A stretch of DNA of 51,525 nucleotides, counting the filler, from Jimgerdemannia flammicorona (Eukaryota), in NCBI GenBank assembly GCA_003990765.1. It is 2 parts of 2 records of this genome, joined end to end, with 100 filler letters (N's around TTAATTAATTAA, not from the genome) between each part and the next. Parts side by side here need not be neighbours in the genome. Positions count along the whole stretch, not along the records: positions 25,819 to 51,525 come from RBNJ01000801.1; 1 more part is not named here. The stretch is one strand, 5' to 3'. Shown here one piece after another: positions 12,201-43,199 of the stretch (position 1 is its first letter; every line of letters starts with the position of its first letter). The translations under genes were made by a program, and so were the position numbers. The notes beneath the pieces were generated by a model, which worked only from the letters and a program-made list of their open reading frames with translations, did no database searches and was not told where the DNA came from.

Positions 12201-12759
12201 ACTCAGTACAAGAAGACTGAAGCCCATCCTGTTGAAGATTTTGAGGAAGTAAGTAACAGTGAAGACTACAGTGACCTAGACTTGTAACCTACCAAGGTTA
12301 TTGCCCAGAAAACAGTCTATCCAGCAGAGAAAAGGAAGAGACCTGTAGAAAGACTATCCAGGAATATCAGCAGAAGAATCACCCAAGAGGGAGATGAAGA
12401 ACATGAAGAGAAACAAATAGAAACACCTCTCCAGACTCCTTTATCTTTTGTTTCCAAGATAAATGAGCTACTATCAGAGAATGAGGAAATGAAACAAGAA
12501 GAATGGAAACCTGCTGCTTCAAAGCCCAAGAAGAAGTACATCCTGAAGACTATACCTAGAGACATCTATAATGAAGCCTGGCAGAAGATTTAAGAGGCCA
12601 AGATGGAAGTCCCTCTTCTGCAGTTCCTGCAACTAATACCAGCTGGAGTCTGAAATAAATTGCTGAGAACAACCAGATCTAGTACTGGCTAAATCCCAAT
12701 CTCACAGCAAGAACCAGCTCCCATCCCTGTCCAAGCAGCTGAAAGATATGTCAGCACCT

Positions 12760-13110
12760 ACTTACATGGAGATATTGGAGGACAAAAAGTGAAAATCCTC
12801 ATAGATATAGGAGCAGCTGTCTGTATTATTGCCAAATGATTCTTGGACACCCTCCAATGGCCCATTGATGAACCATCCAACCTCAGCATCATAGTAGCAG
12901 ATGGAGCCCGAACTCAACCCCTTGGAGAAGTATGAAATATCACTATCTCTCTTGGACACATTCAGTTCTCTATCCCAAAAGCTGTTGTCACTGAAGCTGT
13001 CACCTATGATATGATCCTTGGTACCAACTGGATGAAGAAAATGAATGCAGTTGTTGATATTGGTTAACAAGTACTCAAGTTTGACTACTGAGGCAAAAAG
13101 TACAGAGTTA
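12760..13110 (+). pseudogene. Element A aspartic protease
   Basis: KILIDIGAAVCII (DTG decayed to DIG, 12804) and YDMILGTNWMKK. Confidence 0.85.
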
Positions 13111-14427
13111 AGGTGAACAGCTATAAGCAATTGAAGAAGAAGAAGAAGATCACTATTCAGGAAGAATATGTCAGCAGTGAGAAGTCTAACACAGAGGAGG
13201 AAGAAGAATCTGAAGACATAAATGACCCCAGGCTCAATCCCTGAATTAATCTGGTAGATGACAGACCAGAAGACAATGTGTGGGCCAAGAACACCATCCC
13301 TATTACCATTGGAGTCATTGTAGGAGAAATCAAAGGATGCCCTATCTGCCTCAAGAGATACAAGTGTCCTGAGCATTTCTCCAAGATCATGGAAACAAGG
13401 AAATCACCTGGTGCAGCCTGCTCCAAGTATAGAAAGAAGAAGAAGAAATGCAGACATACTCCAGAAACACCTACAGCTAAAGCTGTAGAAGTGCAAACAA
13501 TTTGGAGACAAGAATTATTGGAGGAAGAAGAAGTTCCTGACAAAGAAGTTCCTGAACAAGAAGTACCTGAAGAGGAAGAAGTCCCCAAACTCATTCCCTG
13601 GGATGACCCTCACTGGACACTACCTGAAGACAATGACCCTTGGAATATAGAAGAAGGACCCAGTATAATCACCATATCCCCAAGAAAGAAACTCACCAAG
13701 AAAAAGCTTTTCAGCTAGGAAGATGCCCACACCAAATGATCTTCTACTCTCTCTAAGACTACTGCTATCAGTGTCATTTACTAGACCAACAGGAGAGACA
13801 AAGACCCCAGAGACCTGAACTCCCAAACACAGTTATACAGTCAACCACCTTCCAAGAAGTTACTACCAAATTGCAAAGCCAATTCAGAGGACAAGGCCTC
13901 TTCACCTGGACAGAAGTATACCCCTTATCTACTCTTCCACCAACCTATGACCAAGATGGGAATTGATTCCTGAGACAATAAGAAATCAACAACTGAGAAC
14001 ATCATTTCTGAGCAATGGAATATTGCAACCATGGAAGACATTCTGACTGCTGAGACTGCAGATATCAGAAGATTCACCTCAGTCATAATATTGCAATCCA
14101 TACTTTGAAGAGAGGAGACAATAGAGGCCAGATCTGAAAGAGCCAGACCAAGAAGCCAGAAAGAAGAATCCTCAAGATCTACAATTTGGAAGAAGACATC
14201 CTAGCTCTCATCAGACATGCAACCCACTAAGGATGGGCAGAAGATGCCACCAACTTCATGGAAGCCCTAGACCCTACAGAAAGAAGAGGAATCAACTACC
14301 TCTGAGATCCCCTCACTGGAGCCAGATGGCCACACCTCAACCTCAGAGTCTGGAGGCTCTCTGCTAGTAGAGCTTCAGCCTTAGGAAAGCCTGAACACAG
14401 CAAGGATATTACCCAGTATGCCCTGCT

Positions 14428-14820
14428 GCATCCTAAGGCCAAACCCTCAACCAAAGCCCACCCAGAAGATGTAGGGTATGATCTTCACAGTCTGGAGGAT
14501 GAATCTATTAAACCTGGAAAAACCTTCATGATCAGAACTGAATTAGCCATGCAGCCACTCCAAGGAGCTTACATCCAACTGACCTCAAGGTCTGGACTTG
14601 CCAGACAAGGAATAACTGTAGAAGAAGGAACCATTGACCCAGGATATATAGGCGAAATCAAGGTTATCCTACACAACAGCAGTGCAGAATGGCACTGAAT
14701 TATTAGAGAACAGAAGATTGCCCAAGCAGTCTTTATAAAGATCAGGACCTCATAATTATAAAAAGTCTCTGAATTGACTGAGGGGATAAGACAAGCCAAA
14801 GGATTTGGAAGTTCAGATAA
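14428..14820 (+). pseudogene. dut: Element A dUTPase
   Basis: All five trimeric dUTPase motifs: VGYDL, RSGLA, GTIDPGYIGEI, KIAQAV, RQAKGFGSS. Confidence 0.92.
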
Positions 14821-15249
14821 GAAGGAAGTACATCTCCTTCAAGTCAACCACCTCAAGAGGAATGTTTCCCAGCAAGTGTACCAGCAATCAGTCAGACTGC
14901 ACAAGAATCTTATCCTGGAGCCTGGAGAACAAACTATCTTCGAAATCTTTGCACCACCCGACCCCAGAAATCTTTTCTTTGAACCTAAGGAAGATATCCC
15001 ACACCTGGACATAGAGGGACATACATTTCCTGACAAGATGAATCCAGTACACTTCCAAGCAACCAACCAAAGTTGAAAAACCATCATCTTGCCAAAAGAA
15101 ATCATCATAGGACACCTGGTATCTTTTCTCAACTGAACTTATAGGGAAGTTTATGAACTAAACCTATTGGGAAATGGCAAAAGATCTCAGAAGAAAGGAA
15201 AGGCCCCTCTGTGACCCAGGAGACAGTGAAGCCTTCCACCAACATTGGA

Positions 15250-17716
15250 GAAGAATTGACACTCCAACAACAGCAACAACTAGTAGAACTTCTCAACAAA
15301 TATCAAGATATCTTCACCACCAATTATGGCAATCTGCCATACAACCCATCATATCACTACAGCATAAATACAGGAAATACAACACCCATCTAGCAGAAAT
15401 CCTATAGAATACCCCATCACTTGAAAACATTTGAAAAAGAGCATATTCAAGAACTCTTAGACAATAGAGTCATCCAACCCTCTACCAGCCCCTGGACCAG
15501 CCCTATACTTATTGTACCAAAGAAAGGAGGATAGTGACTTTGTGTGGATTACAGGAAACTCAATTCAGTCACTGAAAAGAATGCCTATCCTTTGCTCAGA
15601 ATCAATGACCTTTTAGATCAGTTACAAGATGCCAGATACTTCAGCAGTATGGACCTCTTTGTAAGATTCCATGAGATCTCTATGGACCTTAAGGACATTC
15701 AAAAGACAGTCTTCCTTACTCTAGGAAAACTGTTTGAATACCTCTGAATGCCCTTTGGACTTTGCAATACACCCCCTACCTTTCAGAGGATGATGAATTC
15801 AGTCTATGCCCCCTTGATCCACTACTGTCTAATTGTATACATGGATGATTCCAACATCTACTTAGCAAATTTTGAAGAACACCTATACTACCTAGAGGAA
15901 TTCTTCAAGCTCACCAGTAAGAACTACTTGAGACTGAATGCAAAGAAATGCTACTTTGGAAAACAGAAACTCAAATTCCTTAGATTCATAGTTTCAAAAG
16001 AAGGAACTCATGCAGACTCAAAGAAAACTGAAAAGATCAACAATTGGCCAGTACCCAAGACTCCAAAGGAAACATTATCATTCCTGATACTGGTATCCTA
16101 CTACAGAAGATTTATCAAGGACTTCACCCAAATTGCTGCCCCAATCTGAATCCTTCTCAAGAAAGAAGTGCCATTCAAATAGACAAAATCACAAGAAAAA
16201 GCCTTCAAAGAACTCAAGAACTGCATGACTACTATATCAATTCTTGTATGCCCCAATCTACAGAAGCCATTCATCTTGTATACAGATGCTTCTAAAGATA
16301 GCCTTGGAGCAGTTCTAGCCCAAGAAGGACCTGACCAACAACACTATATGATAGCTTATATAAGCTGAGCTACCAATCAACAGCAGATGAACTATGGTAG
16401 CACCAAACTGGAATGCCTTGCAGTCATATGGGTGGTCACCCTATTCAAGCATTACCTTATTAGAAAAAAGTTCACCCTGATCACAGACCATGCAGCCCTC
16501 AAATGGCTATTCAACTATAAGGAACCCACCAGAATTCTAATCCACTAGATCCTTATCCTTCAGGATTACAAAATCACCATCATCCACAAAGCAGGGAAAG
16601 CCCACAACAATGTTGATGTACTTTTCCACTAGCCCCAATGAACCAGAAGAAGGGTGTCCCAAGGAACTATACTCTAAAAGAAGCTCCTCAGACCATCAAG
16701 GCACAAGAAGATCTCATCCAAAAAGAACATCAGAAAGCCCACCAGAGACAGATAAATATAGAAGAGAAGCTGCAAACAACATACCAACATTGGCCCAACC
16801 TCAGAACACAAGTCTGGGATATACTTAAGAAATACAATACCTGCCAGAAGTACCAAGGAAGGAAGAACTATCAAGCACCATTGCAACCAATCATGTCACC
16901 AGACAACATCTTTCAGAGATGGGGAATAGACATAATTGAACCTCTACCAGTTATACCAAGAAGAAACAAATACATCCTTATATTTGTAGAACATCTGACC
17001 AAGTGGCCTGAGGCTTTCCAAATGGAAATTGCAGATGTCTTAACCATTGTAGGCCTTCTCCATGGACTCACACTCAGATATGAACTCCTAGAAGAACTCA
17101 TCTCTGACTGAGGCACAGAATTCATCAATAATATAATCACAAGTTATGCCCAAATTCACAAGATCCACCTTAAATAGACTACATCATACTACCCTCAGAC
17201 CAATGGCATGACAGAGGGAATGAACCAGACCATCAAGAAAGGACTTGCCCAAGTCAATTCTACCAATTGGGACCTCTGCTTACCTGAGATCCTATGAGAA
17301 ATTCAGAACACCCCTGCTGCCTCTACCAAACAAAAGCCATTCAAAATGATGTTTGCTAAGAAAACCAAAACTGCCAATCATGAGAATCTCAGAGATCTCC
17401 TCAAGAAGACAGAACAGTTATGTAATCAAGCCCGAGATCAGATTATCAAAGCCCAAGAAAGACAAAAGAAGTATTATAATCAGAAATAGAAGGATCAAGA
17501 GATCAAGATTGGAGATCAAGTACTAGTTTGGAGAAGCATAATTGAAACAAATTTTGCCACCAAATTGGAGCTCAAATGGGAAGGACCTTATCTTGTACAC
17601 AACATCAGAGGAACCAGCATCTATTTAAGAAACATAGATAGATGAACTCTGAAGACACCAGTACACATCAATTGTCTCAAGATATACCTTTCCCCATATC
17701 ATAAATCAGAGAGTTG
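15250..17716 (+). pseudogene. pol: Element A RT-RNase H-integrase
   Basis: SPWTSP, DYRKLN, MPFGLCNTPPTFQR, YMDD (15838), LYTDAS, WGIDII, LISD*GTEF, YYPQTNG and KWEGPY. Confidence 0.95.
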
Positions 17717-18216
17717 ACAACTGCCTTCAAACTCTTGTCCTTAGCTCATTTCAATCACTACCAATTCCCCTTTCCCAATTCTAAGAAGTCAATGAGAACA
17801 CTCTCCAGAAGATCCAGATTCATCAAGAGAATCTTGTCCTGGCCAGATGATTGCTATAGGTCCACCAACTCTAGGCCCATTATGCAATTGGAGAACAATT
17901 GCAGAACCTCCCAGTCTCAGAATAAATATACATCCAAAGCACCACAGGACTATCAAGAAGAGATGTCACTGCTGTAGACAGGCTCTATACTCTTTACAAA
18001 CATAACCCTGCAGCCTTATTACAAGCACAATTCTCCTAGTGAGATATATATAGAATGAACTTGGCCACCTACCTGAGTATCATCAATACTATCAAAATCC
18101 TATTTCCAGAAGAAGAAGAAGAACCCTTAGAATGGAGCAACCATGGTACAGATGATGAAGATGATGGAACAGATATTGATGTAGAAGATGCTTACCCACA
18201 CTGGAATGATGACTAA
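17701..18216 (+). pseudogene. Element A accessory ORF3 homolog (env position)
   Basis: One frame with several stops: HYAIGEQLQNL...GLSRRDVTAVDRLYTLYKHNPAAL, ending in an acidic tail. The start ATA sits in a TATCATA context, matching the TATCATG start of 27108. Confidence 0.7.
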
Positions 18217-18256
18217 AGAACAGTCTGAGGACAGATCATCCTTTAGTAGGAGCTGA

Positions 18257-19684
18257 TGTGACAAACCAGAACATACTACCCAAATTATAACTTAGCCAGA
18301 TAATATGAATATATAGTATAGTAATCAGCAACCATTGCTGTAGAAAGCTATATAAATAGCTAGACTACCAGATGAGGTATACCTGTGTAAGACCTATACA
18401 CCTGTGTAAGACCTACACACCTGTGTAAGACTTACACATCTGTGCAAAACCTGTATACTTGCCAAAAATAGTAATATATAATTAGCAATATAGTAACCAG
18501 ATGGCAACCAACTTGTATAAATTACCCCAGAGACAAGAGTGAATAAACCTCAGTTCTAAAATACAAAGCAAAAGACAAGTCTGCCTACTATACTTCAAGA
18601 GATATGCCTGCCAAAAGCCAATTGATCTAGGAAGGATAGCAATACTTAGGAGAAATGCCTGCTCTACAGCCACTACTAGGAGATTGTGAGCTTTGCTCCT
18701 TTCCCACTCCAGTCCACTTTCTAATATAAAGAACAAGTCTATTTTTGGTTTGCTTGTCAGATAAGTCTGAAGTTTGCTGCTGAGTTCAAGGAAGAACTTT
18801 GCTACCATTTCCAAGTTATTTGCCATATTCCCAGAAAGCCACCTTGCTTAAGCCAGTTTCTGACACAACTTCATAGTGATCTATTTGCACAAATGAAGCC
18901 AGTCTTTGACACAACTTTATCAAGAGACCCTTTCTAAGAAACTGCTAGCACATTTCCCAGTTAAAGCCACTGATTCAAAAAGAATCTGTATCATCATATT
19001 CCCAGAAGAGCCCAATTCAGAAAGAATCCATGCCATCTGAGTAGTATTCCCAGTTGAAGTCACCAATTCAGAAGAATCTACACCATCTGAGTTATTTCCC
19101 AGAAAGCCACTGATTTAGGAAGAATCTGTGATATCTGAGTAATCTGATGAGTTATCCATTGTTCCCAGTGAGCCAATTCAGAAGAAGCCATGCCAAACTA
19201 AGTCATTCACCAGAAACTGCATACTTTTGGAGATCATACTATACAGAGATCATTGCACCAAGATCGTCATGCAGAAATCACATAAGGAAAGCTGCTAAAT
19301 TGTCAGATTGTTCTGCATAAGAAACCCAGTCATGCTACATAAGATCATCATACAAAGATCACCTGCTACTCAAGAAGGAAAACTGTTAAATTCCTTGATC
19401 ATCACATATAAGGAGATCATTACACTATATATGAAATTCTACCAATTCCCAGTTGAGCTAAGAAGGAAAAGACATACAAATCACTGCTATGTATACCTAG
19501 AGAACTGTCTAAATAAAGAAACTGCTCACAGATATCCAGCTTTGACTATTATACCACTAAATATCAAGGACCTCAGGAATCTTAGAACATTTTGTTGCTT
19601 TTTGACAAAGTAACTGGGGACTCAAGCCAAACTACATCTACCCTCAACCTTGTAATTTGTCTCCATTGAGCCAGGCATATTACA
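18257..19684 (+). repeat. Element A 3' LTR (1428 bp), preceded by PPT AGTAGGAG
   Basis: Direct repeat of 9247-10685; TG...CA termini; followed by ATAG. Confidence 0.95.
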
Positions 19685-23014: not shown

Positions 23015-25018
23015 TTTATTAATAGTATAAATTGGTTTTAGATAAGTAATATCTTTAAATACATCTCTAACAAATGGGCAAATATTGTGATAAAGATATT
23101 TCTGCCATTTTAATTCCATAGAAGGAGGTACTAGTACTGAAAATAACAAGGTCTTGATTATTTCTATAACTTTTGAAGTCTTGGATTTACTACTTTTTAA
23201 TAGTTTAAATTCTTAGAATAGACTATTGGCAATTTCTTATACTTTGACAGTACCTGGATTCACTCTAGTGAAAAGAAAATATTGAAACTTTTGCATACTA
23301 GATAGCTTCTTGAAGTATACTTCCAAACTACTCAGAATGTCAAAGTATTGGAAACCATCCCTGTTGTTATAATGCTGTGCTTTATTTAATCCAGTAATGC
23401 TAGATCTTTTTACTATATCAATGATATGATATACACAGTCCACTATAGTTTTACAATAAAGCCTTTTAATTAGGCCAAAACTATCATTATATTTAAATTT
23501 GGTATAGCCTAGAACCATGAAGTTCAATTTAATACTTTCATAATACCTGTAAATTACCAAATACAAATAAAACCAAAGAGTTATATTGTTTTTATTTTGT
23601 CTGCCCACATTATCATAAGTGATTTTTAAGTACTCTTCACCTTGGTTCAATTGCTTAATTCTATTAAAGACTAGGCTAAGTATACCATTTAGACCCTTTC
23701 TGAGAAGTTCATTCTCATCAAGAATATAATTAATTTGCTCATGGACTGCTTCATTTTAGATTTCAAACAAATGCACTTTATGGGCACTAAAGTAATACAC
23801 TTTGTCAATCTGTTGATTAGAATAAGATATATAGACATTTTGGGCTTAGTTATAACTATAATAAGCAACTGTATTAATACTATAGAATGATATCTTGTCT
23901 TTTAGTATAGAATAATTCTGGTCAATAAGTTTCCTTTGTTTTTCTGCCAATTTGATATTTCTGTTATAATAATTTTATTCTAGCTTGGCTTTAGTAAGAT
24001 ACTCTTTATATCTCTTTAATAAGTCTTGAGTCTTTTCTTATTTATGAGCTTCGAATTGTAAATTATTCTGCAAATATTGACAAGTATTGTATAAGTTAGT
24101 TTAAGGACTTATGATTTGGATATATAGAGTTAGCTGATGCCACAATTTGCAGAAGGCATCATATTTCAGAGTATATAGAGTACTATCTTTCAGTCTGGCT
24201 AAAAAGTTATAGTAAACAGATTTAAAACTCATTTCTACTGATAAAATAATTATTGATTGAGTCATATAATTAACTTTTCTTATCAGACTAGACAGCCTAA
24301 GAACTTCAGCATAATTCAAAAGAAAATTCTTAACAATAATAGCAATGTTCTGATCAATTATCATTTTAGTTTTTCACTGAGACATTCTTTTGATATTACT
24401 ATAGAGCTATAATAAAAGGCCATTTTTCAGCAGATAATCTTGTATATTTTCAAAATAGGTATGACCAATTCCTAATATATTTAAATAAGTTTTCTGGCAA
24501 AGAGATATATTGTGATCTCAGTAATATAAAGTTCTTTTATTAGCATGAGCTTTCTTCTTAAAATGATAACTAGTACTTATAGATCTACCATCTATGGCCT
24601 TAAGTTATACCATCAAAAAGATATCTTGTTCAGGCTTGGAAAGAGCTTGAAACATCTCATATATCTTAGCAAATACTTTTTTGGAAACTTTGGAAGAGCA
24701 ACTACAACTGCATCTAACTTCTAAAAATTGAAGTACTTTCTTGTATTTGGTTATAATTGTATCATTTATCATATATATATTTTTATATTCAGTTTCTCTA
24801 GTTTTGTAAAATTTCTTTTATGTAGCATATTAAAAATATAAAAAAATACAATCTTTCAATATTTTCATTTTTTGGTAAGTGGTATTTATGCTTTTATTAG
24901 GACTGAATATATAATTGTTGGTAAATTTCATTCTTTATCCAAATATTTTTACAGGACAATTTTCTCTCCTTGTTTTCTTTTCAAGATGCTTCTGATGGTG
25001 CTATAATTTTGGTTCCAT
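23015..25018 (-). pseudogene. Sola-like DDE/D DNA transposase pseudogene
   Basis: YDNVGRQNKN (DNCxGQNKN type), FMVLGYTKFKYNDSFGLIK (GHTxxxxDxxFG type), YSYN*AQN...QQIDKVYY and SP*TNLYNTC. No TIRs found. Confidence 0.72.
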
Positions 25019-25311: not shown

Positions 25312-25718
25312 CTAAAACTGCCCGGGATCTTGGCCATCAGCAGAAGTTTGATTCAGGCGAGGTGACCGACGAGGTTTCTTGAATTTGCCTATTTGGTAAC
25401 GATTTGTCAATTCCAAGATCAAGAAAAACATTAAAGTAACATGCATTCTTAAAGAGCGTATGCAAATTTATATACTCACCATTTTTGATGATAGGACGGA
25501 GACCAAGCATCTTCTTCAGGATGGCCATTTCATTTTCAAGTTCCTCCTTGTTTGAAGCTCTTTCCGAAAAGGCAAAATCAATAAACACGGCCTTGAATCC
25601 ATCGCGATGACGTTGGATAAGGATGTTCTCGGGGCGAATATCGTTGTGGAGAACACCATGATCGTGGATATCCGACAATGCGTTTACGATCTCGTTACGT
25701 TCCTGATCACTCAACTCT
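25312..25718 (-). CDS. 3' end of a host protein kinase-like gene (5' part lost in the gap), with a predicted intron at 25389-25479
   Basis: Catalytic loop HGVLHNDIRPENILI and IDFAFS. The intron is GTGAGT...AAATAG, and the spliced tail reads GKFKKPRRSPRLNQTSADGQDPGQF*. CpGs are retained. Confidence 0.78.
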
Positions 25719-25818
25719 NNNNNNNNNNNNNNNNNNNNNNNNNNNNNNNNNNNNNNNNNNNNTTAATTAATTAANNNNNNNNNNNNNNNNNNNNNNNNNN
25801 NNNNNNNNNNNNNNNNNN
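25719..25818. other. Artificial contig linker (N44-TTAATTAATTAA-N44)
   Basis: Symmetric N padding around a six-frame stop spacer at 25763-25774. Confidence 0.95.
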
Positions 25819-25925: not shown

Positions 25926-27118
25926 TGAATAAGGAGCTCTACTACGGAATCATCACATACCTGGGACAGTGAAAGATGCCCCAACATCTGGAAGAATGGA
26001 CACAAACGATTATCAACAGGACATGGAAACAATTCGAAACCGACGGAGAAACACTGAAGAAAGGAAAGCTACTAGTCATACTAGAACACAAGAAGGAGCA
26101 AGCAATGAAATCAATACATGAACTTGGCCATCTAGGAGGAACAAATACATATGACAAGGCAAGGAGAACAATATGGTGGCCAGGAATGGAGGAAGATATC
26201 AGACAATTCATCAAGACCTGTGACAAATGCCAGAAACAGAAACAAGACCAACGAAATCAAGCCCCAGGATCAGCACACATAGAACCAGTACCATTCACCC
26301 ACATTGCAATAGATGTAATTGGCCCCCTACCCTTGACTTTGACTGGCAACCGATACATCATTGTCATCGTAGACCTTTTTACGAAATGGATAGAAGCAGG
26401 ACCCCTTATGGAAGCCAATGCACAGTCAATTGCCGATTTCTTCCACAAGGAAATCATCTGCCAGTTCAAGACCCCAACACAAGTAACTACAGATAGAGGA
26501 ACCGAATTCGTGAACCAGTTCTTCGAGGTTCTCTACAAGAAGTACAAGATCCAGCACATTCGGACCACAGCCTATCACCCTCAAGGAAATGGACAAGTAG
26601 AAAGGACCAACAAGACCCTCAAGAATGTTATCGCCAAGATCTGTGATAACTATGAGAACTGGGATCACTATCTACCAATAGCACTATCTGCTCTCCAGGA
26701 TATCTGATCACAAAGCACCCACTTTACCCCTTGAGAAATGCTGTTTGGAGAAGAATGTTCTCAAGGAACCCTATCATCCAATGGAGATGCTGTATGGAAA
26801 CATGTAGATATGGAAATACGGAGACTACACCAAATCAGGAAGAAGGCTGAGGATTACATAACCAAGGCACAGACACTACAATGGAGGAATACGGAAAAAA
26901 CCCACAAGCCCCTGGAGATTATCAAGATAGGAGACAAAGTCCTAGTTTATTGGAATATGGTAGAAGCTTCATGGTCATGAAAACTAGAGCCCAAGTAGGA
27001 AGGACCTTACCTTGTGCAAGATATAAAAGGGACCACCTTTTGGCTACGGAAACCCTCAGGCACAATAATCCCCACCACCATTCACCGAAACCGACTCAAG
27101 AAATATCATGGTCAGTAA
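25926..27118 (+). pseudogene. Element B integrase (few stops)
   Basis: HELGHLG...CDKC (HHCC), IAIDVIGP, TTDRGTEF, GQVERTN and a *EGPY C-terminal module. Confidence 0.93.
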
Positions 27119-27569
27119 CAAAAGTACTGCGATGGCACTCAAGATCACTAGTGCTGCCCAAAGGGCCATCGAAAGACAATGGCACACCACTGAGCCCCCG
27201 ACCATAGAGCCATTCTATGAGGATATTCAGAGTATTGTGCAGACTCATCTCTCTCAGATCTCACACTTTAGAGCCTATCAATATCATGCAGAATTTCAAG
27301 AGTACTTCAAGCTTGGACAGGTGCTCAATCAGGATCCAGCAAAGACCAAGGAGGACTGGATTGCTGAGTGTCAACTCTCCCACTCACAGATTACTATCGC
27401 CAAAAGGATCCACAAGTTATTCCGAGAAGATGAACTAGCCATAGACCACCTGAGAGGAGTAATCCCTACCGACTTTGAGAAAGTGAGGAGACATCATTGG
27501 GAAACAGTCATGCAGCAAATTGCACAGTACAAGACCATACAGACGGTTGAAGCCTGGGAGTTTGAATAG
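27108..27569 (+). CDS. Element B accessory ORF3, intact, 153 aa, unknown function
   Basis: Open frame overlapping the integrase stop and ending before the PPT; core EYFKLGQVL...LSHSQITIAKRIHKLF. Confidence 0.8.
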   Translation: MVSNKSTAMALKITSAAQRAIERQWHTTEPPTIEPFYEDIQSIVQTHLSQISHFRAYQYHAEFQEYFKLGQVLNQDPAKTKEDWIAECQLSHSQITIAKRIHKLFREDELAIDHLRGVIPTDFEKVRRHHWETVMQQIAQYKTIQTVEAWEFE

Positions 27570-27606
27570 ATGCCTCAGGGACGAGACCATCCATTCAGGA
27601 GGAAGT

Positions 27607-28019
27607 TGTGACAGTACAGCCGTATTTGGAAGAAGGAAATAGGGAATAGACACTTGATCGCACCCATTCCTAAAGTAGTATAGCCTTATAGTTAGCAGTC
27701 GTCGATTTCGACATTGTCTAAATTCTTAGACATTATCCGAATGTTTCGACAAAGTCCAAATGACTCATTTATTACTTAGCCACCCTCTCATAGCTAGCAA
27801 AACTTGTATAAATAACCCAGTATCTTCGAGTGAATAACCTCAGATCGAAATAGTTCAAAGCAAAGAGATAGCAAAGGAACTAGTAAGCCTGCGGGCAGAT
27901 ACTTCAAACTCACCCACCCTCCCCTGCCGCTTCAAGAGACTCTGCGAAAGTCAGAACAGTCAAGTTTCAAGATACAGAAATCTGACGTACTTTCAAGAGT
28001 AAGCATCCACTACGTTACA
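27607..28019 (+). repeat. Element B 3' LTR (413 bp)
   Basis: TGTGACA...GTTACA after the PPT, with TATAAAT at 27807. The partner LTR is not in the window. Confidence 0.8.
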
Positions 28020-30169: not shown

Positions 30170-33100
30170 TTGAGCTGGAGCCTTATTTGATGAGCAAAAT
30201 AATATATATCCTCAAATAGTAGGTAGTAATTCAGAGACTTTCTTAACTGTTAGGGTTGACTCAATTTTCTCAAATAGGATCTGGGCAATGTAATAACTAA
30301 TAGAGATCTTAAATAGTATTCAACTATGATTTCAGATTAGAATAATGATTTCATCTATATATATAATCTTTATCAATAACTCCTATTTCTACTGAGAATC
30401 CTTTTAATACTAGACTGCTGCAATAGCATATCCTTCCAATAAGTTCTTCAGAAATTTGAATACCAATTTTTCTATAGACTTGCTTAAATTCTTGATTGAA
30501 AAATATAGCTTCTTCAGCTATATATAGAACATATCTGACTACTTTTTGGCTTTCTTTGATTGGAGCCATAGCTGTTGTCGTTAATGTGATAAATTCTAGT
30601 ATCTTAGTAGTCAGATTGTTGAGATAATGCAGAGTGGTGACCATTGCTCATATTATAGTTTAGAGTTTTTGATTAGATGAGATACTGACTATATATCCTG
30701 TCTTTTGGTAATAAAAGTATACTCTACTTCTTTTGAGTTTATTCCTTTCTCCTTTGGTGAGTTTCTTGAAGATACTTAGCCAAGTAGGTTCAGAATTTCA
30801 GAGTGACTAAGAGGTAGATATATATAAGAGAGCTCAGAATGATTTATACTTAAGTTCTTCTTTCTTGGTCAATAACTTTTCTATATTATGAAATTGTTTT
30901 TGAGACAGAATTGGTCTAGCTATTAGGATTTGCTTTATTATGGTCTTGATTCTTATCAGGTACCAATGTCAGTAATCACAATCAACTAGGTATCCTTGTT
31001 ATCAGATCTTTCTTGTGAGTCATTCTGGTAGTATATCAAATAAATAGTCTGCTCTGATACTATTTTGTACTTCATCATTGACAATATATCCTAGACCAAT
31101 AGTGTTTCAAAGTGACTTGAGTTTTGTATAGAAGGTTATAAATTCCTCCTTACTATATATATTAAATTTGATATTACAGAGTTTGACTTGAGTTTCCACA
31201 ATTAGAGTTTCACTATAATATTGGACAATTATGAGTTGTTTGAGTCCAGAAGATTCAGGGTGTTCTCCACATTCAGGAGTAATATTTGCTATGTTTAGAG
31301 TAATAACTACAGGTCAGTTATCTCATATAAGAGGTTTTTTAGGAAGAGTTTATCACTATTCTTTAGTAGATCCTCAGAAGAATATAACAACTTAGTAGAT
31401 ATAAGCCATGATAGTAGTAAAGAGCTGTTCAATAGTATAGTATTAATTATTTGTTAGGAGATATCAGCAACTTGGTCATTGGTCTATTGATTGACTTTAA
31501 AATTAATATCTACTATATTAATGAAGCTTTGGACTTTTTGTACAGTACCATTAAAGGTAGGTAGACTTAGGCTTTTTGATGGCCAGGTCTGTTTAGCTAA
31601 AAATGTAATAGTTGCTGCCATTATAGCTTTCAGGGTCCTAAAGTCTAAGATTTATATTATTTATAAGAGATAGTTAAACTACTAATAGTAGAGTAACTGA
31701 TATGACTTGATATACTGGTACAGAGTATAATAGTATTCTCTGAGTTTGTATAAGTTACTGGAGTAACTATTGTAGATTTGGTATAAGAGCCTAATAGATA
31801 TCTGTCTATTGTTCTGTGTATTTATTTTGTCCTGAGATATGTAGATATATCTCCTTCAGTGGTATTTCAGAATCAAATTCAGTAAGATACCTCTCCTCTT
31901 TTTCACTTTAGTTTTCATGTATCTGAGATTGTTAAGTGTCAATTTAGATGGTACCTATTATATACTTAATTTCAGATAGACTTAAATCAAATGCTGGTTT
32001 AGATTTTAGTTCAGCTTTGGGTTCAGATAGAGTTCTAGCTGAGCCAGCTTCTGACTATAGGTCTGGTTATTAGAGAAGGATTTCTCTGACTTCTCCTTTA
32101 AGAAAATGACAGGTTTTGTATTTCTGGAAACAGTAGTATAGAGCAGTCTTAATCCTAGCATAGTGATAGTTAGTAGAGTTGAGCAACTTGGTTACAGAGG
32201 TTGGGGCTTCATGGAAAACAAAGACTAGGAAGATATCTGCTAGTTGTCCTAGATTGCTCAGATTTGTAGAACTTATCAAAAAGGCTTCTATAAGACTTTC
32301 TTTATCTTGACATATAGGATATAGAGTAAGGAGTTTATTGAATAGGGTTTTGTCTATCTACTAATTTAATTTCAGTACTTCTTTATATATATTAAGCTGT
32401 CTCACTTGTTGCAGACTTAGAGGTCTAATTGTTCTTATATATCAGGTTTAATTTACTCCAGATTGCTAGATAGTATGGAATAAATTCCAGTTCAGTGATT
32501 GGACTTTATACTAACTTAGAGAAATTTCTATAGTATTTTGTAGCTGGGTGGAAACATCTTGAAGCAGAATTGAATCATAAACCACTATTACTAAGTAATA
32601 AGAAGGTACTTTATTAGGATACTATTATGTAGTTCTGGAAGAATTTTCTGAAAGTTCTGAAAGTTCTGAATATTCTAGAAGATCATTTTCTTAAGATTAA
32701 GATCAATTTCATATAGAGTCCATCTCTTTACTTATTGATTTCAAGATTGGGTTAACATCTCAACTAAGTTCTTTTCCAGACTTATTCTAGATATTTAGAA
32801 TTTTCCTTATTTCAGAAAGTTTAAAAAACTAAGACCAGCTTAGTTGAATCAGTACATTACTGCAGTTAATATTCAATTAGGAAATTTCTGGATCTTTTTA
32901 GAAGTGGTATATAATATAGTATATGTAGATTTATATAAAGATAATATATGGGTTATTAAATAGGTTTATTCACTATTTATGATATTGCTATTGGCTAATA
33001 CTAGAAGTAGTATATAAAGAAATATTTATATGGAGAAGTATTCTTGTCTGTTCATATCTATTTATATCTATTTATATCAATTTATATCTATTTGTGTCTG

Positions 33101-33908: not shown

Positions 33909-34012
33909 ATAGAAGAAAAAGATGACATCTCATTCTTTCACCAGTAACATTCAGGTGACACAAGACTCGGATAATACTTTTACTACATTTTTGGTGTCCA
34001 ATAACTATCGAC

Positions 34013-35919
34013 ATGGATGGCAATGATCAAACTGGTGAGCATACTGGCCAGGGGGGTGGTGGTGCCTTTGGCTGGCAGTAGGTAGAGAGGAGGGGAGATG
34101 GTTTGCGGATAATGGGGGCCTCGATGGCTAGCCAAGGCCCTGGTGGTGGAGGGAGGGGTGGTCTAAGGCAGAGAGGAGGAGAGAGGTCAACCTTTGTGGA
34201 CAAGGTCAGAATGGGAAAGATGGCCTCTGGTCTAGATGGTTGGCTGGGCCTGGGGAAGACATTGACAGCTGCTGATGGGGGACAGAGAGGTGTGCCCAGG
34301 GGAGTTTCTGATGGTAGGGGAGGAGTGGGAGTAGGGGCTGGAGATGTGACTATTGATGGAACTGTGACTGGGGATCTGGCAAAAAATCCAGATATGAAGG
34401 CAGTTGACAATTCAGGACAGAGAGTGGGCATGAGGCCCAGGGACCTGGCAGATAGGGTGATTGGCATGGTGTCAGCCCCATTACTCAAGAAGTTGAGGTT
34501 GGAATTCATGGTCACAATGTGTTTCTGGGGCTTGGCAGTGATGGCGAGGATGATTTTGGGGCTGGTGGTGTAGGAGGCAAAGGGAGTAGCATCAGTGAAG
34601 TTTTTGAAGGAGAAGGAAGGGGTTAAGGTGGGGTTCAAGAAGGAAGATGCCTTGCTGGCAGCCTTGGACAAGGGGGTGACAGTTGGCAGGGTTGTGGTCC
34701 CTATGGCCAGGTGTATATGCTGGGACCCCCGAGTGGTATAGTTGATGGTGTTGGATCTCTCTATGGTGTTGAAGGAGAGGATCAGGGAGTTAGTTGTGAG
34801 GCGATCAGGGAGTATGGGGAGATTGTGGATGTTGGGTGGGAGGATACGGAGCTTTGGACTGGTGATGTCAATGTCAGGGTGAGGCTGACTGGGAAGGAGA
34901 ATACAGGGAAGTCAAGGGACTGGCCAGCGATGCTGAGGTGGGGACCAGTGGAGTGCAAGTTCACAAGGGTGAAGGGGATCCAGGAGGAGGAGAAAGATCT
35001 GTTGGAGGCTCTGGAGGATCTGGAAGGGGCAGTTGTGAGGAGAAGATTGGCCTGGAAGGAGTTTGAGGCCAGGATGGTGGTGGGGGAGGTAAATGGAAAG
35101 AGGGTCCGGATGGAGAGGGGGGTCTGGGAGAAGATGCAGGGAAGGAAAATCCAGAAGGAGCTGCTGGTGAAGTTGGGTGTGGGTGGAGCCAGTGGAAGCT
35201 CAGGGGAGGGGGTTGTGGGATTGCAGGAGAGTAACTGGGCTGAGGGGAGTGACAGGGCCTGGGGTGGGGCTCAGATTGGAGTGGAGGAGGAGAGGGAAGG
35301 CACTATGGTGGCAGATGCAGAAATGAGCAAAGGTGTACACCCTCAGTATAGTGTCCCAGGTGGAGCTGAGGGGGAGGAGAAGCTGCTGGATATGCCAGAT
35401 GAGGTGTGGGATGAGTCAGTGAGGAGGAGCGCGCTGGTGGACCCCAAGGTAGATGGGGGACAAATTATTCAGGGTGTGGCAGAGGTGGTGGATAAGGAGA
35501 AGTGGATGTGGCAGACCCTGGAAGGGGTAGTGGCAGAAGAGCTGGGGGGAGAGGATTTCAGAGTTATGGAAGAGAGGCATTGGGAGGAGATCTTATGGTA
35601 GGAGGAGGTGCTGAGGAAGATGAGGAATGAGATCCTGGCTGTTCTCCTGGAGTCAGTGGAATATCAAGTTGATGATCAGAGAGAAGAGGAACTTAGGAGG
35701 ATTGTGAGTGACAGGGCATTATACTTGTGGAACTCGAGAAATGGACTGGAGAAGTGGTATGCAGTCTGCATAGATTATCGGTTGGAGATGGAGGTAGTGG
35801 ACAGGGTGGAATATCAGGAAATCTTGGAGGCACTAGATGCTCAGGCTAATGCAGAGGATGACTTGGAAGCTGAACAGCATTTGGATCTGGCTGGGGATGA
35901 GATGAGTATAGAATACTAG
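34013..35919 (+). pseudogene. LINE-b ORF1
   Basis: Consecutive ORF fragments 34103-34573, 34711-35601 and 35608-35919, homologous to LINE-a ORF1. Confidence 0.8.
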
Positions 35920-35950
35920 GCTGGGGTCTCTAATGTAACATTCTTTCAAT

Positions 35951-38900
35951 ATGAACTGTACAACTAGGTTATTCTCTTTGAACATAAATAGGTTACAGGG
36001 GGCAGCTAGGAGGAAGTATATATTTGGATGGCTTAAGGGACTGGATGCAGACCTCTTCTTATTACAGGATGTTTGTTATGAGGTAGATGTAGATTTACAG
36101 GATTGGACTAAGGAATGGGGGGGGGCAGCAGTATGGAGGGGGAAAGTGGGTATTCTCATTTGGAAAGGGATGGGGGATATTGGGGACATTGGACACTGGG
36201 GGTCTTAGGTGGTGTGGGGAGTGTGGAAGAGACCTGGATGGGACTCATTGACAGTTGGATCTTGTTACTGCTCAGCTGAGAGAGGGGAGAGAGTGGATTG
36301 GATTTGCAGATTGAAAGAGACCAGTGTCTTGGGAGAGGTTGGGTTGGACTGTATGGGGGGTGATTTCAACATAGTATGGGATAAGGCAATGGATAGAACA
36401 GATGGAGGGAGAGGCATGTAGAGCAAAAGTAGTGGATTGAGTGACTGGTTAGAGACAGAGAGATTGAGTTCTTTAGTGGACTAAGGAAGACAGTTTTGGG
36501 ACAATTGGAGGGTGTACACCCACTGGGCGGTAGGGCTGGGCTCCAGGATTGCCTGGGTTTTGACAGTGAAGTGTTGGGGAGCCAATGTCTGGATGGTGCT
36601 GGAGGTAGTTTGGTGTATGTGGTCTGATCACTGGGGGCTGCTTGGAGGGGGGAGGTTTGGGGGTAGTGAGGATGGGCCTGGACATTGGTGGCTAAATTCT
36701 TCCTTGTTGGAGGATAGGGCTTTGTGGGAGAGTTGGGAGACAGAGGTTGTCGAGAATATTGGAAGGTAGTGGGAATGGGGCCTGGGGATTGGGGACTGCT
36801 GGAGGAGACTGAAGGCAAATGATCAGGGGTATTGGAGGGAAGCAGGTAAAGGATGGTGTGCCCAGCAATGGCAGAGGGTGCTATGGGCCTCACAGTGTCT
36901 GGCGGCACTTATAGAGAGTTGGGCTAGTGCTCTAGAAGATGGGGAGGTGACTGATTGGTATATGTGAGAATTCAAAAGGAGGTGGAGGAGCTTAAAGGAG
37001 TGTTACTAAGAGAGGAGGAGGTGAGGATGCAGGGGATGGTGGCCTGACTGAGGTGGCAGAGGCTTGAGGAGGGTGAGAGGTCTACTAGGTTTTTGACATG
37101 GTTGTTACAAGCATGCTGAATGAAGCAGTGGTGGGAGGGAGTTCTGGATACAAATGGCAAGCTGGTGGTGGGGACTCTGGAGATTCTGGGTTTGCTGAGA
37201 ACCCATTGGGAGAATCTATGGAGTTAGGAGGAAGGAGGAGTGGATGCTTCAGACATTGAAAGACAGCTGGGGGATTGGCATCCAAACTCTGTGATAGGCC
37301 TTGGGGCTTTGGGGGACCCAGTGAGTGGAGAGAAAATTTGCAAGATTGTGGCCTCGACGAGTAAGGGGATGGGAGAATGGGCTTCCCTGGGATTTTTGGA
37401 AGATGGCTGGGGTGGGCAAGGTGCTAGAGGAAATGATCACTATGTGGGATGAGGTTCTTTGGTCTGGTGCTTGGATTGGGGGCCAGTGCCTAGGGCTAGT
37501 CTCCTTACTCTACAAGAATAAGGGGAGGTGGGAAGATTGGAAGAACTGGTAGCTGATCATGCTACTCAATATGGACCGCAAACTGGTGACAAAGATCTTG
37601 GTGATGAGACTGCAAGGAATCACTCAGCAGGTGCTTAGTGTGGAGCAGCATGGGTTTGTTGGTGGCCAGTTGATTAGCAATGGGACAGCTTGGGTATATG
37701 GAGTGATTGAAGGTGCCTGGGCTACAGGGGTAGATGGCCATTTGATATTTCTGGATCAAGAGAAGGCTTACGATAGAGTGCAGAGGATCTGGCTAGTGGG
37801 AGTACTGAAATGGATTAGTATCCCCCCGATGTTCTGAGGATCATTGATTGGCCTCTTGGAGGACAGTCAGGTGGCATTGGTCATCAATGACCACAGGGGA
37901 GTAACCTTTCCCTTGGGGCGTGGGGTACTGTAAGGGGACCCCTTGTCACTCATATTGTATGCCCTCTCCTTGGAGCCCCTACTGGACAGGATTCAGCATA
38001 AGATTGGGGGTTTGGACATTTTGGGGATTAATTGGAAGGTGGGGGCCTTTGCTGATGATATGGTGGTTGGGCTGGGCTCCTTGATAGATGTGGGGGAGTT
38101 GCAGAGGTCTGTGAAATGGTATGAGAGGGGATCTGGTGCTAAACTAAACTGGCACAAATGCAAGACTCTGGTGCTGGGTGCTGGAATTGTTGGTGGCAAT
38201 GTAATTGGAATGGTGGTACTGGCTGGTGAACCAGTGCATTATTTGGGGATCTACTTCTTAGTGTTCTGATCTCTTCTTCCCTGTGTATGGTGGAACCAAC
38301 AACTTCTAGAGTGGGGAAATGTTCTGCTATGATGGGGTGGTCAGCATTTGTCCCTAGCCAGCAGAGTGATGGTGCTGAATGTGTATTGGATGCCAAAGCT
38401 GTTGTATGTGAGATATCATTTGGATTTCCCATCTTGGGTGGTCTGGGGGCTGTTGAAGATGGCGAGGTTGTAGATCTGGGGAGGGCAGCAAAGCCAGGTG
38501 GGTTGGGAGGTGCTCACACTGTCCGTGGAAAGAGGTGGGCTGGGTTTGGTTGACTTTACTAAGCAGCTTCACTGCTTGAGAGCTTGGTGGTTGAGGAGAG
38601 TGAGTGAGCTAAGGGGCCAGGAGTGGGTGCCACTCATGCAGAGGGTGTGGGAGGTTCAGAATTCCCCTTGTGGTGACTCTGGTGACCTGCTTGCGATGGT
38701 GGTCATGGATGGGAGCAGGAGGATGCTGTTTATGGGCTTCTGGTGGGGGGTGGTGGATGGTACTAAGAAAATTGGACTTCAGTGGCGAGGTGATGAAGCT
38801 GAGGAGGATTGGGGACCACAGATGTAGCAGTGGGACAGGCTTCTACTGGGTGGTGTTCTGGTGGAGGATTTTCAGCTTAGAGAGAATATGGAGTGTTTGC

Positions 38901-39537
38901 AGAGCTTGGGTAGAGACCTGTGGCCCGAAGCTTGGCAGAGGGTTGGAATTAGTAAGAAGTGGGATTGGAATGGACTGTGGCTTTGGAGCAAGCAGGTGAG
39001 ACAGTGGCTGCCCCCCAAGTTCTGGGTGGTGTGGTGGTGAATCCTATAGTGGAATGTGATATTGAACTATCAGTCTGGGCACTTGGTAGACAGTGGAGTA
39101 TTCGAGTGTGAGGAATGTTTCAATGTTGGTCAGGAGGAAGGAGTGGTACAAACGTCTGAACATTGGCTTGGCAAGTGCAAGGTCTTGGAGGAGTTTTGGA
39201 GATATATCATGGACCAGTTAGGGCTGTGTGCCTTGGAGGGAGGGGAAGGGGGGAGATGGGGAGAGCTCCACCAGAGACTGGGGGGTGGGGTTGGAGAAGA
39301 ATGGCTGACCCTTGGTTGGGCTCTGGCCATGTAAGTTGGGTTGGTGGGGCATTGGATTCATGTATTTGAGGAGGGATAGTGGGTTGAGGTTGGGGACAAG
39401 GTGGCATATTGGGAATGGCTTTTGTTGGACATTTTGAATAGCTGGTAGTGAGGGTGGGGGCTAGGAGGGGGGAATTGTAGGGGTTTGATATAGTGTATCT
39501 CCTGGAAGAGTGGTGGGAGGATTCAGGTAGTGGGTGA
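35951..39537 (+). pseudogene. LINE-b ORF2 (APE endonuclease, RT, C-terminal CCHC)
   Basis: FSLNIN..LQD, GGDFN, SDH, FLDQEKAYDRV, GDPLS, FADD, YLGI, GGLGL and CEEC...H...C. Confidence 0.92.
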
Positions 39538-41051
39538 TTGGGTTGTGTTCAGGTAGTGGGAGGTTGAGGAGAGAGGGTTGGGTCCATGGGGCATTGGTTG
39601 AGGATTTGGGGTGTCATTATATTGTTAGATTTATAGATGGCAGTAATAAAGGACAGTCTAAGGAACTATAAAAAAAAATAAAAAAAAAATAAAAAAAAGA
39701 TAGAAGATAAAGGTACTATTTTAATAGAAGAGTTGTCAGTATTTGCAGATAATAAGTTTCTAGTATTGAGATATTTTAATAATATCTATATTATAGTAGT
39801 AGTTAACCATATCTTCCAGGAGGCAGCTAATTTAGTAGTAGCTTGAGATTTGTCTGATTCAGTAGATCTCATAAAGTATGTTTAGGATATTTTAATGAAC
39901 TTTTATGAAATAGAGGAGTGTCAGACTATAGATATTTATGAGAAACAGAGGAGCTATGGCTCAGTTGACAATGGTATTTCAAATGTTGGTACAGATGTTA
40001 TTATAGTCTTAGATAGTGATATCTGAGTAAGAGTTTGAGAGTTGTGATGGTGGTTTTCATTTATTATGATTTTTTGTTTTAATATACCATATATTCGGTA
40101 TATATGCTTTTAGTGCTAATTAGTAAGATTCCATTTTTATATATCATGTATTTTGTAACTTTAAGTTGACTTGTCTTTTTAATCTGTGACTTTGGTTTAA
40201 CTAAGCTTCATAATCTTATATGTAATTTCTAGATTTGTTCTAAGAGTGATATATATGTAATTTCAGTAGCTTAGAGATTGTGTGCATATATATATAAAGT
40301 ATGGTGAAATATAATATATATAAGAAAAAAATAGTTCAGTAAAATACTATTATTGATAGTAGCATTAAGAAGCTAAGATAAGTGATAAATCTGATATTAT
40401 CTTGAAGACTTCTTTTTTATAATAGAACTAAGTAGCAATGTCTGAAAATTTACAAAAAAAGGATAAAAAAAGGGGTCAGTAACTCTACTAGTTACAACTT
40501 TAGCAGAGATATCACTGATGATAGTCTGAGAAAACTTATAGACAAAGTGAAGCCTATAGTAAGTCTGAGAGCATCAGAGACCAATATAGCCAATCTAGAC
40601 CTCATGTTGTAGAGAACAGAGAACAGTTACTAGGAGATATGGGTTGAGAAACTTACAGAAAGCAAAGACCCAGACATTAGTATAGAGCAGAAAATATAAT
40701 GGAGAGAAGATTTTCAAATATTCTAAATAGATGAGTATGAGCCAGAAAGTAGAAAGAATAAGGAGATATTAGACAGTTAAGAAGGAAGAGGGATAGAGAA
40801 GAAAACTATTATAACAGTGACCTCAAAATGATGACATCAGTGCAGGAGATAGTCTTTCCTCTCAAGCCACCAGATCAGAGCACAAGAAGATCATATGGTA
40901 TATGAGATGAGTAATGATGACCAACTGTGAGTCATTGTGACCACAGTATAAGCATTCTGAAGAATATAAAAGAAAGATCAAGGAATCACAGTAGCAGCAA
41001 CCAATAAGAACCACCAATCCCAAAATAGCTCAAAGACTTATTACAAATGAA

Positions 41052-41840: not shown

Positions 41841-41850
41841 GTTCTTTGTT

Positions 41851-43055: not shown

Positions 43056-43199
43056 GGAGCCTATACTGCCACCAAGATCACCAAACTTGAGCACAAGAAA
43101 GACAAGGACCAGAACAAGCACACATATACTATTGGAGAAAACTTTCCCCTAGAGGAACAACTTCTCAAGATCTTGTATCAGAATGAAGGAGTACTTGCT

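Follow-up and report, generated by a model that had tools for sequence, protein, structure and literature searches.

ORF3, a conserved accessory gene of no described family in dUTPase-bearing Ty3/Gypsy retrotransposons of Jimgerdemannia flammicorona

ORF3 copies and the elements that carry them

The stretch of DNA analysed here (the window) comprises 51,525 nt (51.5 kb) from the genome of Jimgerdemannia flammicorona (assembly GCA_003990765.1), in two parts joined by filler. It is repeat-rich, with GC-richer retroelements (0.40-0.53) set in an AT-rich background (0.22-0.31). Of its 177 stop-to-stop frames of at least 70 amino acids (aa), the 150 longest were scanned against Pfam, and fragments of integrase, reverse transcriptase (RT), RNase H and dUTPase from several Ty3/Gypsy elements were found. 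Four long terminal repeat (LTR) elements of this kind, designated A, B, C and D, carry a further open reading frame apart from gag and pol, ORF3, of which the window holds five copies (Table 1). ORF3 is a real, conserved accessory gene of no described family, and belongs to a known category, the additional ORFs of LTR retrotransposons. Only two of the five copies are open frames (B and C2); those of A, C1 and D are broken.

An earlier interpretation made from the DNA without database searches (the sequence-only reading) had proposed the common core of these frames. The core peptides it quoted are all present in place, and their homology was confirmed by profile search and BLASTP. A profile built from 25 window and metagenome members (A3), including B and C2 and leaving out A, C1 and D, returned exactly five ORF3 places from the six-frame translation of the window, the sole extra row being noise (E = 3). 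The two profile members scored 300.2 bits (C2) and 170.1 bits (B), while C1 and D gave 280.0 and 249.1 bits. The copy in A was matched at nt 17791-18024 with 23.1 bits (independent E-value, i-E, 1.8e-8); with an earlier, narrower profile (A2) this match was marginal (2.1 bits, i-E 0.036), so that the membership of A depends on the broader profile. Pairwise BLASTP connected B with C2 (1e-6, 27% identity over 77 aa), D with C2 (2e-13) and B with D (5e-5). The span from [IL]G to F/Y, previously described as a near-constant 37-38 residues, is by direct reading 37 residues in A and B and 38 in C2 and D, and the constancy extends no further than these, the span being longer in more distant relatives. 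The four to five families counted earlier reduce to four elements: the copies at nt 41052 and 46352 sit in the 5' and 3' LTRs of the one element C and are not independent.

Elements A and C were recognised from LTR pairs, target-site duplications (TSD), a primer-binding site (PBS) and a polypurine tract (PPT), element B from its PPT and LTR, and element D from an LTR and PBS. Between its LTRs, element A retains gag with a CCHC remnant, a protease DIGA motif, dUTPase (nt 14306-14695), RT and integrase. The upstream end of B is cut off by N runs at nt 25719-25818. Its ORF3 begins at an ATG with A at -3 and G at +4, and overlaps the pol stop (TAA, nt 27116-27118) by 11 nt in a different frame. 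The PPT/LTR-start motif of B, GGAGGAAGT+TGTGACAGT, has two matches in the window (B, and C at nt 46101), against 0.16 expected by chance.

In element C the LTR copies are 91% identical (nt 40812-42312 vs 46112-47611), and the PPT, of the same motif as that of B, stands directly before the 3' LTR. The LTR ends, the CTAT TSDs, the PBS and the PPT place ORF3 (ATG 46352) inside the U3 (unique 3') part of the LTR, upstream of the TATA box near nt 47381. A tandem array with a short shared LTR was considered as another reading of C and was ruled out, as an LTR of 1.5 kb agrees with the TSD, the PBS and the PPT alike. Identity of the LTR-borne frame with gag was likewise ruled out, given that C keeps a gag start after the PBS and that ordinary gag is found in A and in the related metagenome element L001 described below. 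Element C is non-autonomous, the rest of gag and the protease having been deleted after the gag start close to the PBS. With its matched 1.5-kb LTRs, TSD CTAT and intact 3' ORF3, this gag/protease-deleted element must have moved by means of proteins supplied in trans.

The LTR-like start of D, TGTGACATAC at nt 48766, lies at an AT-rich/GC-rich border. From this TGTGACA motif and the change in composition we infer the start of D's LTR, a single LTR from which the element leaves the window. ORF3 occurs in two positions, which are upstream of the PPT in A, B and L001, overlapping or following the pol stop, and downstream of it, within U3, in C and D. Placement in U3 is read from the PPT and LTR in C and is probable in D. 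This variation of position across the PPT is unusual. Short tandem repeats occur in U3 after ORF3 or near the LTR start, with 35-nt units in C (nt 41847-41974 and 47147-47274), units of about 65 nt in D (nt 50621-50792) and 18-nt units in L001 (nt 6410-6479), and could be enhancer-like.

Table 1. ORF3 copies and features of the elements that carry them in the window
Feature	Position (nt)	Strand	Description
Element A	9247-19684	+	LTRs 9247-10685 and 18257-19684 (86% identical); TSD ATAG; PBS 10686-10701
ORF3, copy A	17701-18216	+	Decayed, 7 in-frame stops in 171 codons; acidic tail; ends 40 bp short of 3' LTR
Integrase of B	25973-27118	+	Zinc-binding Integrase_H2C2 6.9e-19, rve core 2e-13 (Pfam); SH3-like end; frameshifted past 26707
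ORF3, copy B	27108-27569	+	ATG 27108, TAG 27567-27569; intact, 153 codons/aa
PPT of B	27596-27606	+	Downstream of ORF3; motif GGAGGAAGT+TGTGACAGT
3' LTR of B	27607-28019	+	TGTGACAG...GTTACA, 413 bp; TATA box TATAAATA at 27807
5' LTR of C	40810-42319	+	1510 bp; holds C1; TSD CTAT 40806-40809; PBS TTGGTGCCCATTGGCTGG 42322-42339
ORF3, copy C1	41052-41840	+	Within 5' LTR of C; 2 stops in 262; start codon context altered
Internal region of C	42320-46109	+	gag start, dUTPase 42558-43208, RT, RNase H, integrase, PPT 46101-46109
3' LTR of C	46110-47618	+	C2 in U3; 35-nt repeats 47147-47274; TATAAATA near 47381; TSD CTAT 47619-47622
ORF3, copy C2	46352-47140	+	Within 3' LTR of C (U3); intact, 262 aa
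5' LTR of D	48766-51224	+	About 2.46 kb; ORF3 placed in U3; TATAAATA at 50375; PBS-like TTTGGGGGCTCAACTGGG from about 51226
ORF3, copy D	48972-49961	+	Placed within U3 of D's LTR; 3 stops in 329

Relatives in metagenomes

A word-indexed protein search yielded 21 proteins at E <= 0.01 (1231 candidates), and a second indexed search with a broader profile again gave 21 (4019 candidates). With HMMER, 1.84 billion representatives yielded no more than 15 matches at E <= 0.001 (8 at <= 1e-10, 7 at <= 1e-30); every one is a short, unnamed ORF from a metagenome, and none belongs to a cellular family. Every relative derives from an assembly of a metagenome or of a run (JGI, ENA, SRC, Logan), is named 'hypothetical protein' at most and carries no precomputed Pfam domain. 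The relatives fall into a B-type of 153 aa, a type of 155-156 aa, the long-tailed C- and D-types, and several singletons. The 155-156-aa subfamily has nine members running from Met to stop with 64-86% identity. The subfamilies are joined to one another by hhalign: B-type with C/D-type at a probability of 92.3% (E 5.7e-7, 116 columns), B-type with the 156-aa type at 88.9% (E 2.4e-6, 95 columns) and C/D-type with the 156-aa type at 94.3% (E 1.1e-7, 92 columns). Profile-profile similarity, the lack of which would have undone the proposed homology, is thus found throughout these pairs. Between subfamilies (15-30% identity) homology is detectable at the protein level only.

A search of metagenome loci with the B-type alignment found one locus, the 6479-bp contig L001, and a search of viral contigs found none. 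L001 is a nearly intact B-type element with an LTR and with a PBS identical to that of C, arranged as a 1281-aa frame for gag (CCHC), protease, dUTPase, RT and RNase H, followed by integrase (one in-frame stop), ORF3, PPT and LTR. Its ORF3 starts at ATG 5795, and the pol stop (nt 5836-5838) is in another frame. The contig also opens with the tail of a second ORF3, then a PPT and an LTR, so that the order ORF3-PPT-LTR is observed twice. The otherwise open pol region of L001 shows a frame change between RNase H and integrase (nt 4504-4619) and an in-frame stop at a Trp position (nt 5074-5076); L001 may be a young copy that has suffered two lesions, or both may be errors of assembly. In one further relative, P0041, an integrase chromodomain (Pfam Chromo, 2.4e-14) precedes the ORF3 core in the same frame, with no stop between the two. 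P0041 may represent a Pol-fused form of ORF3 present in some lineages, and a loose tie of the domain to integrase function. Transposon context was established for the window elements, L001 and P0041.

One dUTPase-bearing lineage

The sequence-only reading took the carriers for distinct families with largely unrelated LTRs, a view that the comparison of the elements does not bear out. In A, in C and in L001, the relative of B type, pol contains a dUTPase placed between protease and RT, and this domain marks the ORF3-carrying lineage. The integrases of B and L001 are 84% identical (aa) and those of B and C 70%, while these share 25-37% with that of A. About 30 nt around the TATA box are common to B, D (nt 50358-50387) and L001, one PBS is common to A and D (TTTGGGGGCTCAACTGGG) and another to C and L001, and B and C have the PPT/LTR-start motif in common. 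All elements with a visible pol fall in one dUTPase-bearing Gypsy lineage, and ORF3 is present in 4/4 window elements of the lineage with a visible 3' end or LTR, plus L001. The common dUTPase, the integrase identities and the LTR, PBS and PPT motifs indicate that ORF3 was inherited within one clade; vertical descent is enough, and spread among unrelated families is not needed. Pfam dUTPase matches were obtained at nt 14306-14695 (+), 42558-43208 (+) and 30354-30647 (-), with E values of 1.5e-14, 1.9e-24 and 1.7e-5, and in L001 at about nt 2700-3250; the match on the minus strand belongs to a decayed AT-rich element, in which the domain likewise has its place in pol between protease and RT.

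Between B and L001 the DNA identity is 81-88% over the integrase and 63-67% over ORF3 (the nt 27173-27472 side of B), and the synonymous difference rises from 0.48 in the integrase to 0.84 in ORF3. The drop in identity, together with the synonymous rise, makes exchange of the ORF3 module between lineages possible; the contrast may reflect such exchange or faster mutation. The simplest reading is that ORF3 is an old, fast-evolving gene of one dUTPase-bearing Gypsy lineage.

Another type of retroelement in the window (RT pieces at nt 37553-38266 and, inverted, near nt 1785-2093) had no ORF3 match in the six-frame profile scan. The blocks at nt 1-8000 and 34000-40000 are two copies, inverted and 65% identical, of a different element with RT, and show opposite GC skew (-0.26 to -0.54 and +0.39 to +0.58, respectively). 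In the AT-rich stretch upstream of B are a DUF7869 frame (nt 23240-23755, minus strand, 1.3e-13) and a protein-kinase fragment (nt 25340-25762, minus strand, 2.7e-9), the latter running into two 44-base N runs (nt 25719-25762 and 25775-25818) that also cut off element B.

Protein features, fold and family searches

ORF3 had been predicted to be a soluble helical protein of no described family and not an env, and the protein analyses agree. No membrane span was found in ten proteins (maximum Kyte-Doolittle value over a 19-residue window, KD19, <= 1.08), and the Pfam scans returned no env family. An AlphaFold2 model of B with 25 aligned sequences (predicted local distance difference test, pLDDT, 87.7; predicted template modelling score, pTM, 0.79) is all-helical, with seven helices at residues 3-23, 40-75, 81-88, 92-105, 109-114, 120-124 and 128-151. 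The conserved core consists of Y[YFE]x[ILM]G ending the long helix, a short helix, a three-residue turn, a helix with [ST]xxQ...A[KR][KR][IV][HY]x[LI]F, and then P.A[IL]..[LI].G[VI]. The fold of the 280-aa frame of C2 had a pLDDT of 49 with a disordered tail, and was left out of the structure searches. N-termini of the C- and D-types are basic, with a net charge of +2 to +6 over the first 30 residues (C2, P0002, P0009), and the tails of the long forms are acidic (-15 over the last 60 residues of C2). The tail ends of the C-type (C2 residues 243-262, nt 47078-47137) are acidic runs with DLIxF and xLNF(LL), doubled in P0023. Every C-type protein whose tail is complete (7/7) has both DLIxF and xLNF, which do not occur in the A, B or D types; the two resemble short linear interaction motifs.

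Scans of Pfam (single ORFs, and 25 members at E <= 10), NCBIfam and PHROGs returned scattered noise only, save for the chromodomain of P0041. This was the one Chromo match among the 25 members and lies upstream of the core, within which no Chromo was found. Pfam gave no Retrotrans_gag or CCHC match in ORF3, gag with a CCHC knuckle lying elsewhere in A and L001. The suggested resemblance to DUF3102 or DUF1016-N was not borne out, with 0/25 members matching at E <= 10 in the Pfam scans, although the filters of HMMER discard most matches with E above about 0.1, so that a remote likeness may have been missed. A profile search of PDB sequences gave two rows (E 0.39 and 2.6). Foldseek with the B model found nothing at E <= 0.001 in either PDB (best E 0.7) or BFVD (best E 0.48), and a second look with VIA at 618 Foldseek chains gave a best Z of 3.4. 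VIA-align against 48,161 chains produced none at Z >= 5, the best being a TetR regulator at 4.7. In the ESM Atlas, B led to unnamed clusters at 0.95 with no family in common, and P0053 to no usable match. There was accordingly no confident match to a described env or accessory family in Pfam, NCBIfam, PHROGs or PDB. Judged by sequence, ORF3 is a new protein family, known in the protein collections searched only from unnamed metagenome ORFs; its absence from databases may be due to the masking of repeats before annotation.

Among the best 50 of the 48,161 chains were four ParB-family DNA-binding domains: VirB (3vwb; Z 3.5, root-mean-square deviation (rmsd) 5.2, 83 residues), SopB (3mkw; Z 3.5, rmsd 4.8, 89 residues), P1 ParB (1zx4; Z 3.1, rmsd 5.4, 81 residues) and KorB (1r71; Z 3.1, rmsd 4.0, 74 residues). 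All four align to residues 61-153 of the B model, with scores within the chance range for helical models. When the family profile was compared with P1 ParB by hhalign, ORF3 residues 61-101 fell on the helix-turn-helix (HTH) stretch at 145-188 (probability 0.32%, E 0.19). Two weak methods thus point to a ParB-type HTH in the same register, which we treat as a lead and not as a result.

Selection and mutation pattern

The sequence-only reading also held that ORF3 is kept by selection, and the one DNA pair available for measurement, B and L001, is in agreement. Their ORF3 genes are 67% identical in DNA and 68% in protein, with no gap in the alignment of 153 codons, and the differences at codon positions 1/2/3 are 32/28/90, so that 90/150 fall at third positions. 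The ratio of nonsynonymous to synonymous differences (pN/pS, Nei-Gojobori method, NG86) is 0.24, where the two shifted frames give 1.29 and 1.50, and is not near 1, although this is a single pair and the neutral baseline is itself below 1. The integrase of the same pair has a pN/pS of 0.157, and ORF3 evolves faster than integrase (pN 0.199 vs 0.075).

LTR pairs differ by 13% in A and 9% in C, nearly all by transitions (181/191 and 126/138), commonest at C before A, and CpG observed/expected in the elements is 0.02-0.06. The LTR-pair differences are a C-to-T hypermutation signature, either like repeat-induced point mutation (RIP) or driven by methylation.

Proposed expression and role

We lean slightly towards reading ORF3 as a genuine extra gene of one dUTPase-bearing Ty3/Gypsy lineage that is translated from its own AUG and may act, in the likeliest mode, as an HTH-like adaptor to nucleic acid or chromatin. 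What is conserved is a soluble unit of seven helices and about 150 residues, extended in some lineages by a short basic N-terminus and a long acidic tail. The gene always lies at the 3' end of the genomic RNA while its place relative to the PPT differs. Placement downstream of the PPT, as in C and D, would give a copy in both LTRs, the 3' copy remaining within the genomic RNA and the 5' copy standing upstream of the LTR promoter. Translation from its own AUG would proceed via a subgenomic message, an internal promoter or, where pol is overlapped, re-initiation. Binding to nucleic acid or chromatin would be effected by helices 81-88 and 92-105, the latter with the [ST]xxQ...A[KR][KR][IV][HY]x[LI]F motif, and the adaptor would work in trans for the element, either in expression from the LTR or in directing integration, with the acidic tails as a possible recruiting module. 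An adaptor of this kind, for LTR expression or integration, is tentatively the likeliest role, though less likely than not, and the main alternative is an antagonist of host defence. It is doubtful that the matter goes as far as an HTH-like trans-acting regulator of the whole clade, with U3 placement making the LTR a gene carrier and the acidic DLIxF/LNF tails recruiting host machinery. If true, any C- or D-type LTR could form an expression unit under an upstream promoter of its own, even when it is a solo LTR or belongs to a non-autonomous copy that lacks gag, such as C.

Several observations weigh against the adaptor gene proposed above. Selection was measured from one DNA pair, and the two LTR copies of C, expected to be neutral, have a pN/pS of 0.36 with differences of 26/15/33 by codon position. 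The neutral NG86 baseline is well below 1 because 126/138 of the LTR differences are transitions. Of the five ORF3 copies in the window, three are broken. No structural match reaches a Z of 5, the highest being 4.7, Foldseek gave nothing at E <= 0.001 in PDB or BFVD, and the ParB alignment has the low probability and the E of 0.19 already given. ORF3 proteins are acidic (isoelectric point, pI, 4.4-6.8 in 9/10), which is unfavourable to DNA binding. Element context covers only the window, L001 and P0041 among the members. The third-position excess and the kept length in the 156-aa subfamily still argue for coding constraint.

The host-defence alternative, which takes up the anti-silencing factor suggested by the sequence-only reading, holds that ORF3 counters silencing, C-to-T hypermutation or restriction and does not act on the element's own nucleic acid. 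The repeats are heavily mutated, as the transitions between LTR pairs and the CpG depletion show, and the rate of ORF3 relative to integrase, together with its lineage-specific tails, is as expected of a host-conflict gene. We nevertheless regard this as unlikely, as the Pfam, NCBIfam, PHROGs, Foldseek and VIA searches found no similarity to a known suppressor or inhibitor, and pN/pS in the B/L001 pair is well below 1 overall.

It is somewhat less likely still that ORF3 is a C-terminal extension of Pol or integrase, reached by frameshift or read-through, and a targeting domain that replaces or stands beside a chromodomain. ORF3 overlaps the end of pol in the +1 frame by 11-44 nt in B and L001, the B-type integrase is without a chromodomain, and P0041 joins chromodomain and ORF3 core in one stop-free frame. 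In C and D, however, ORF3 begins at least about 600 nt past pol, beyond the PPT and in U3, with stops intervening. The start sites are conserved, with A at -3 in 4/4 read (B, L001, C2, D), as are the N-termini (MAN... or MP...). None among 8000 candidates scored was a protein of 600-2000 aa matching the profile, which is weak evidence against a Pol fusion. Given the PPT and the stops between pol and ORF3 in C and D, a free protein translated from its own AUG is preferred.

That ORF3 is a transduced host gene, or a decaying passenger without a role for the element, is very unlikely. Capture is on record as an origin of additional ORFs (PMC7264820), and the lower identity of ORF3 than of integrase in the B/L001 pair fits module exchange; against this, the 15 HMMER matches include no cellular family, and ORF3 is under constraint and present in all the lineage elements where it could be seen, L001 included. 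Open frames arising by chance, or a conserved cis-acting DNA or RNA near the PPT and U3 with no protein, can hardly be credited: the region does adjoin the PPT and LTR, a site of nucleotide constraint, and three window copies are broken, but this reading fails the codon-position test (90/150 differences at third positions, 153 gapless codons at 67% nucleotide identity), subfamily homology is at the protein level only, and the fold is predicted with confidence.

Comparison with known systems

In plant LTR retrotransposons, extra ORFs lying between pol and the 3' LTR are well recognised as a category (Vicient and Casacuberta 2020, PMC7264820). As in the account of the plant cases given there, ORF3 is on the sense strand at the 3' end, is present in most copies of the lineage and is dispensable for the basic gag-pol cycle. 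It lies within bona fide LTR elements apart from gag and pol, in most lineage copies, and is kept coding in the one DNA pair compared. Unlike the plant ORFs, as that account describes them, it belongs to another host group and element lineage, is not env-like in that it has neither signal peptide nor membrane span, has no sequence family in common with them and lies in U3 in 2/4 elements. Among fungi, a survey of Gypsy elements draws an 'add. ORF' for some chromoviruses and records a basidiomycete case of a dUTPase placed between protease and RT (Novikova et al. 2010, PMC2864245). The elements described here resemble those on record in that survey in having a dUTPase domain, there found once between protease and RT, and unexplained extra ORFs. 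The available text of the survey gives the 'add. ORF' without sequence, position or family, so ORF3 is likened to it by description only, and the B-type integrase is without a chromodomain. Captured extra ORFs also occur in LTR retrotransposons of bdelloid rotifers, where a third ORF is reported to be common to several related LTR element families, as is ORF3 (PMC5408684). ORF3 differs from catalytic add-on ORFs in having no match to a catalytic domain in Pfam, NCBIfam or PHROGs. No description of the ORF3 protein family was found in the open-access literature searched.

The ORF3 genes of C and, probably, of D follow the PPT, are duplicated in both LTRs and lie at the 3' end of the genomic RNA. 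Retroviral 3' accessory genes in or overlapping U3 are represented by sag of mouse mammary tumour virus (MMTV) and nef of primate lentiviruses. The likeness is positional only and does not extend to A, B or L001. No such Pfam family was matched among 25 ORF3 members at E <= 10, and no likeness of fold was found. Sag and nef belong to vertebrate viruses and function as a superantigen and in receptor down-regulation, respectively, functions without a counterpart in the ORF3 elements. With the HTH of ParB, KorB, SopB and VirB, the helices at 81-88 and 92-105 of ORF3, and those following, are weakly alignable (Z 3.1-3.5, 74-89 residues, rmsd 4.0-5.4). Unlike ParB, ORF3 is without the ParB N-terminal or dimerisation domain and has no Pfam match, and the similarity is a lead and not a sign of membership.

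Most of the extra genes known in LTR retrotransposons come from plants and animals, hardly any of them with a function, and ORF3 is a compact, well-folding family tied to one element lineage. The occurrence of ORF3 on both sides of the PPT provides natural variants, single-copy and internal in some elements and duplicated in both LTRs in others, which offer a handle on its expression and on its contribution to the element. Should ORF3 bind DNA or chromatin, it would give fungal-type Gypsy elements a means of regulation or targeting that does not depend on a chromodomain.

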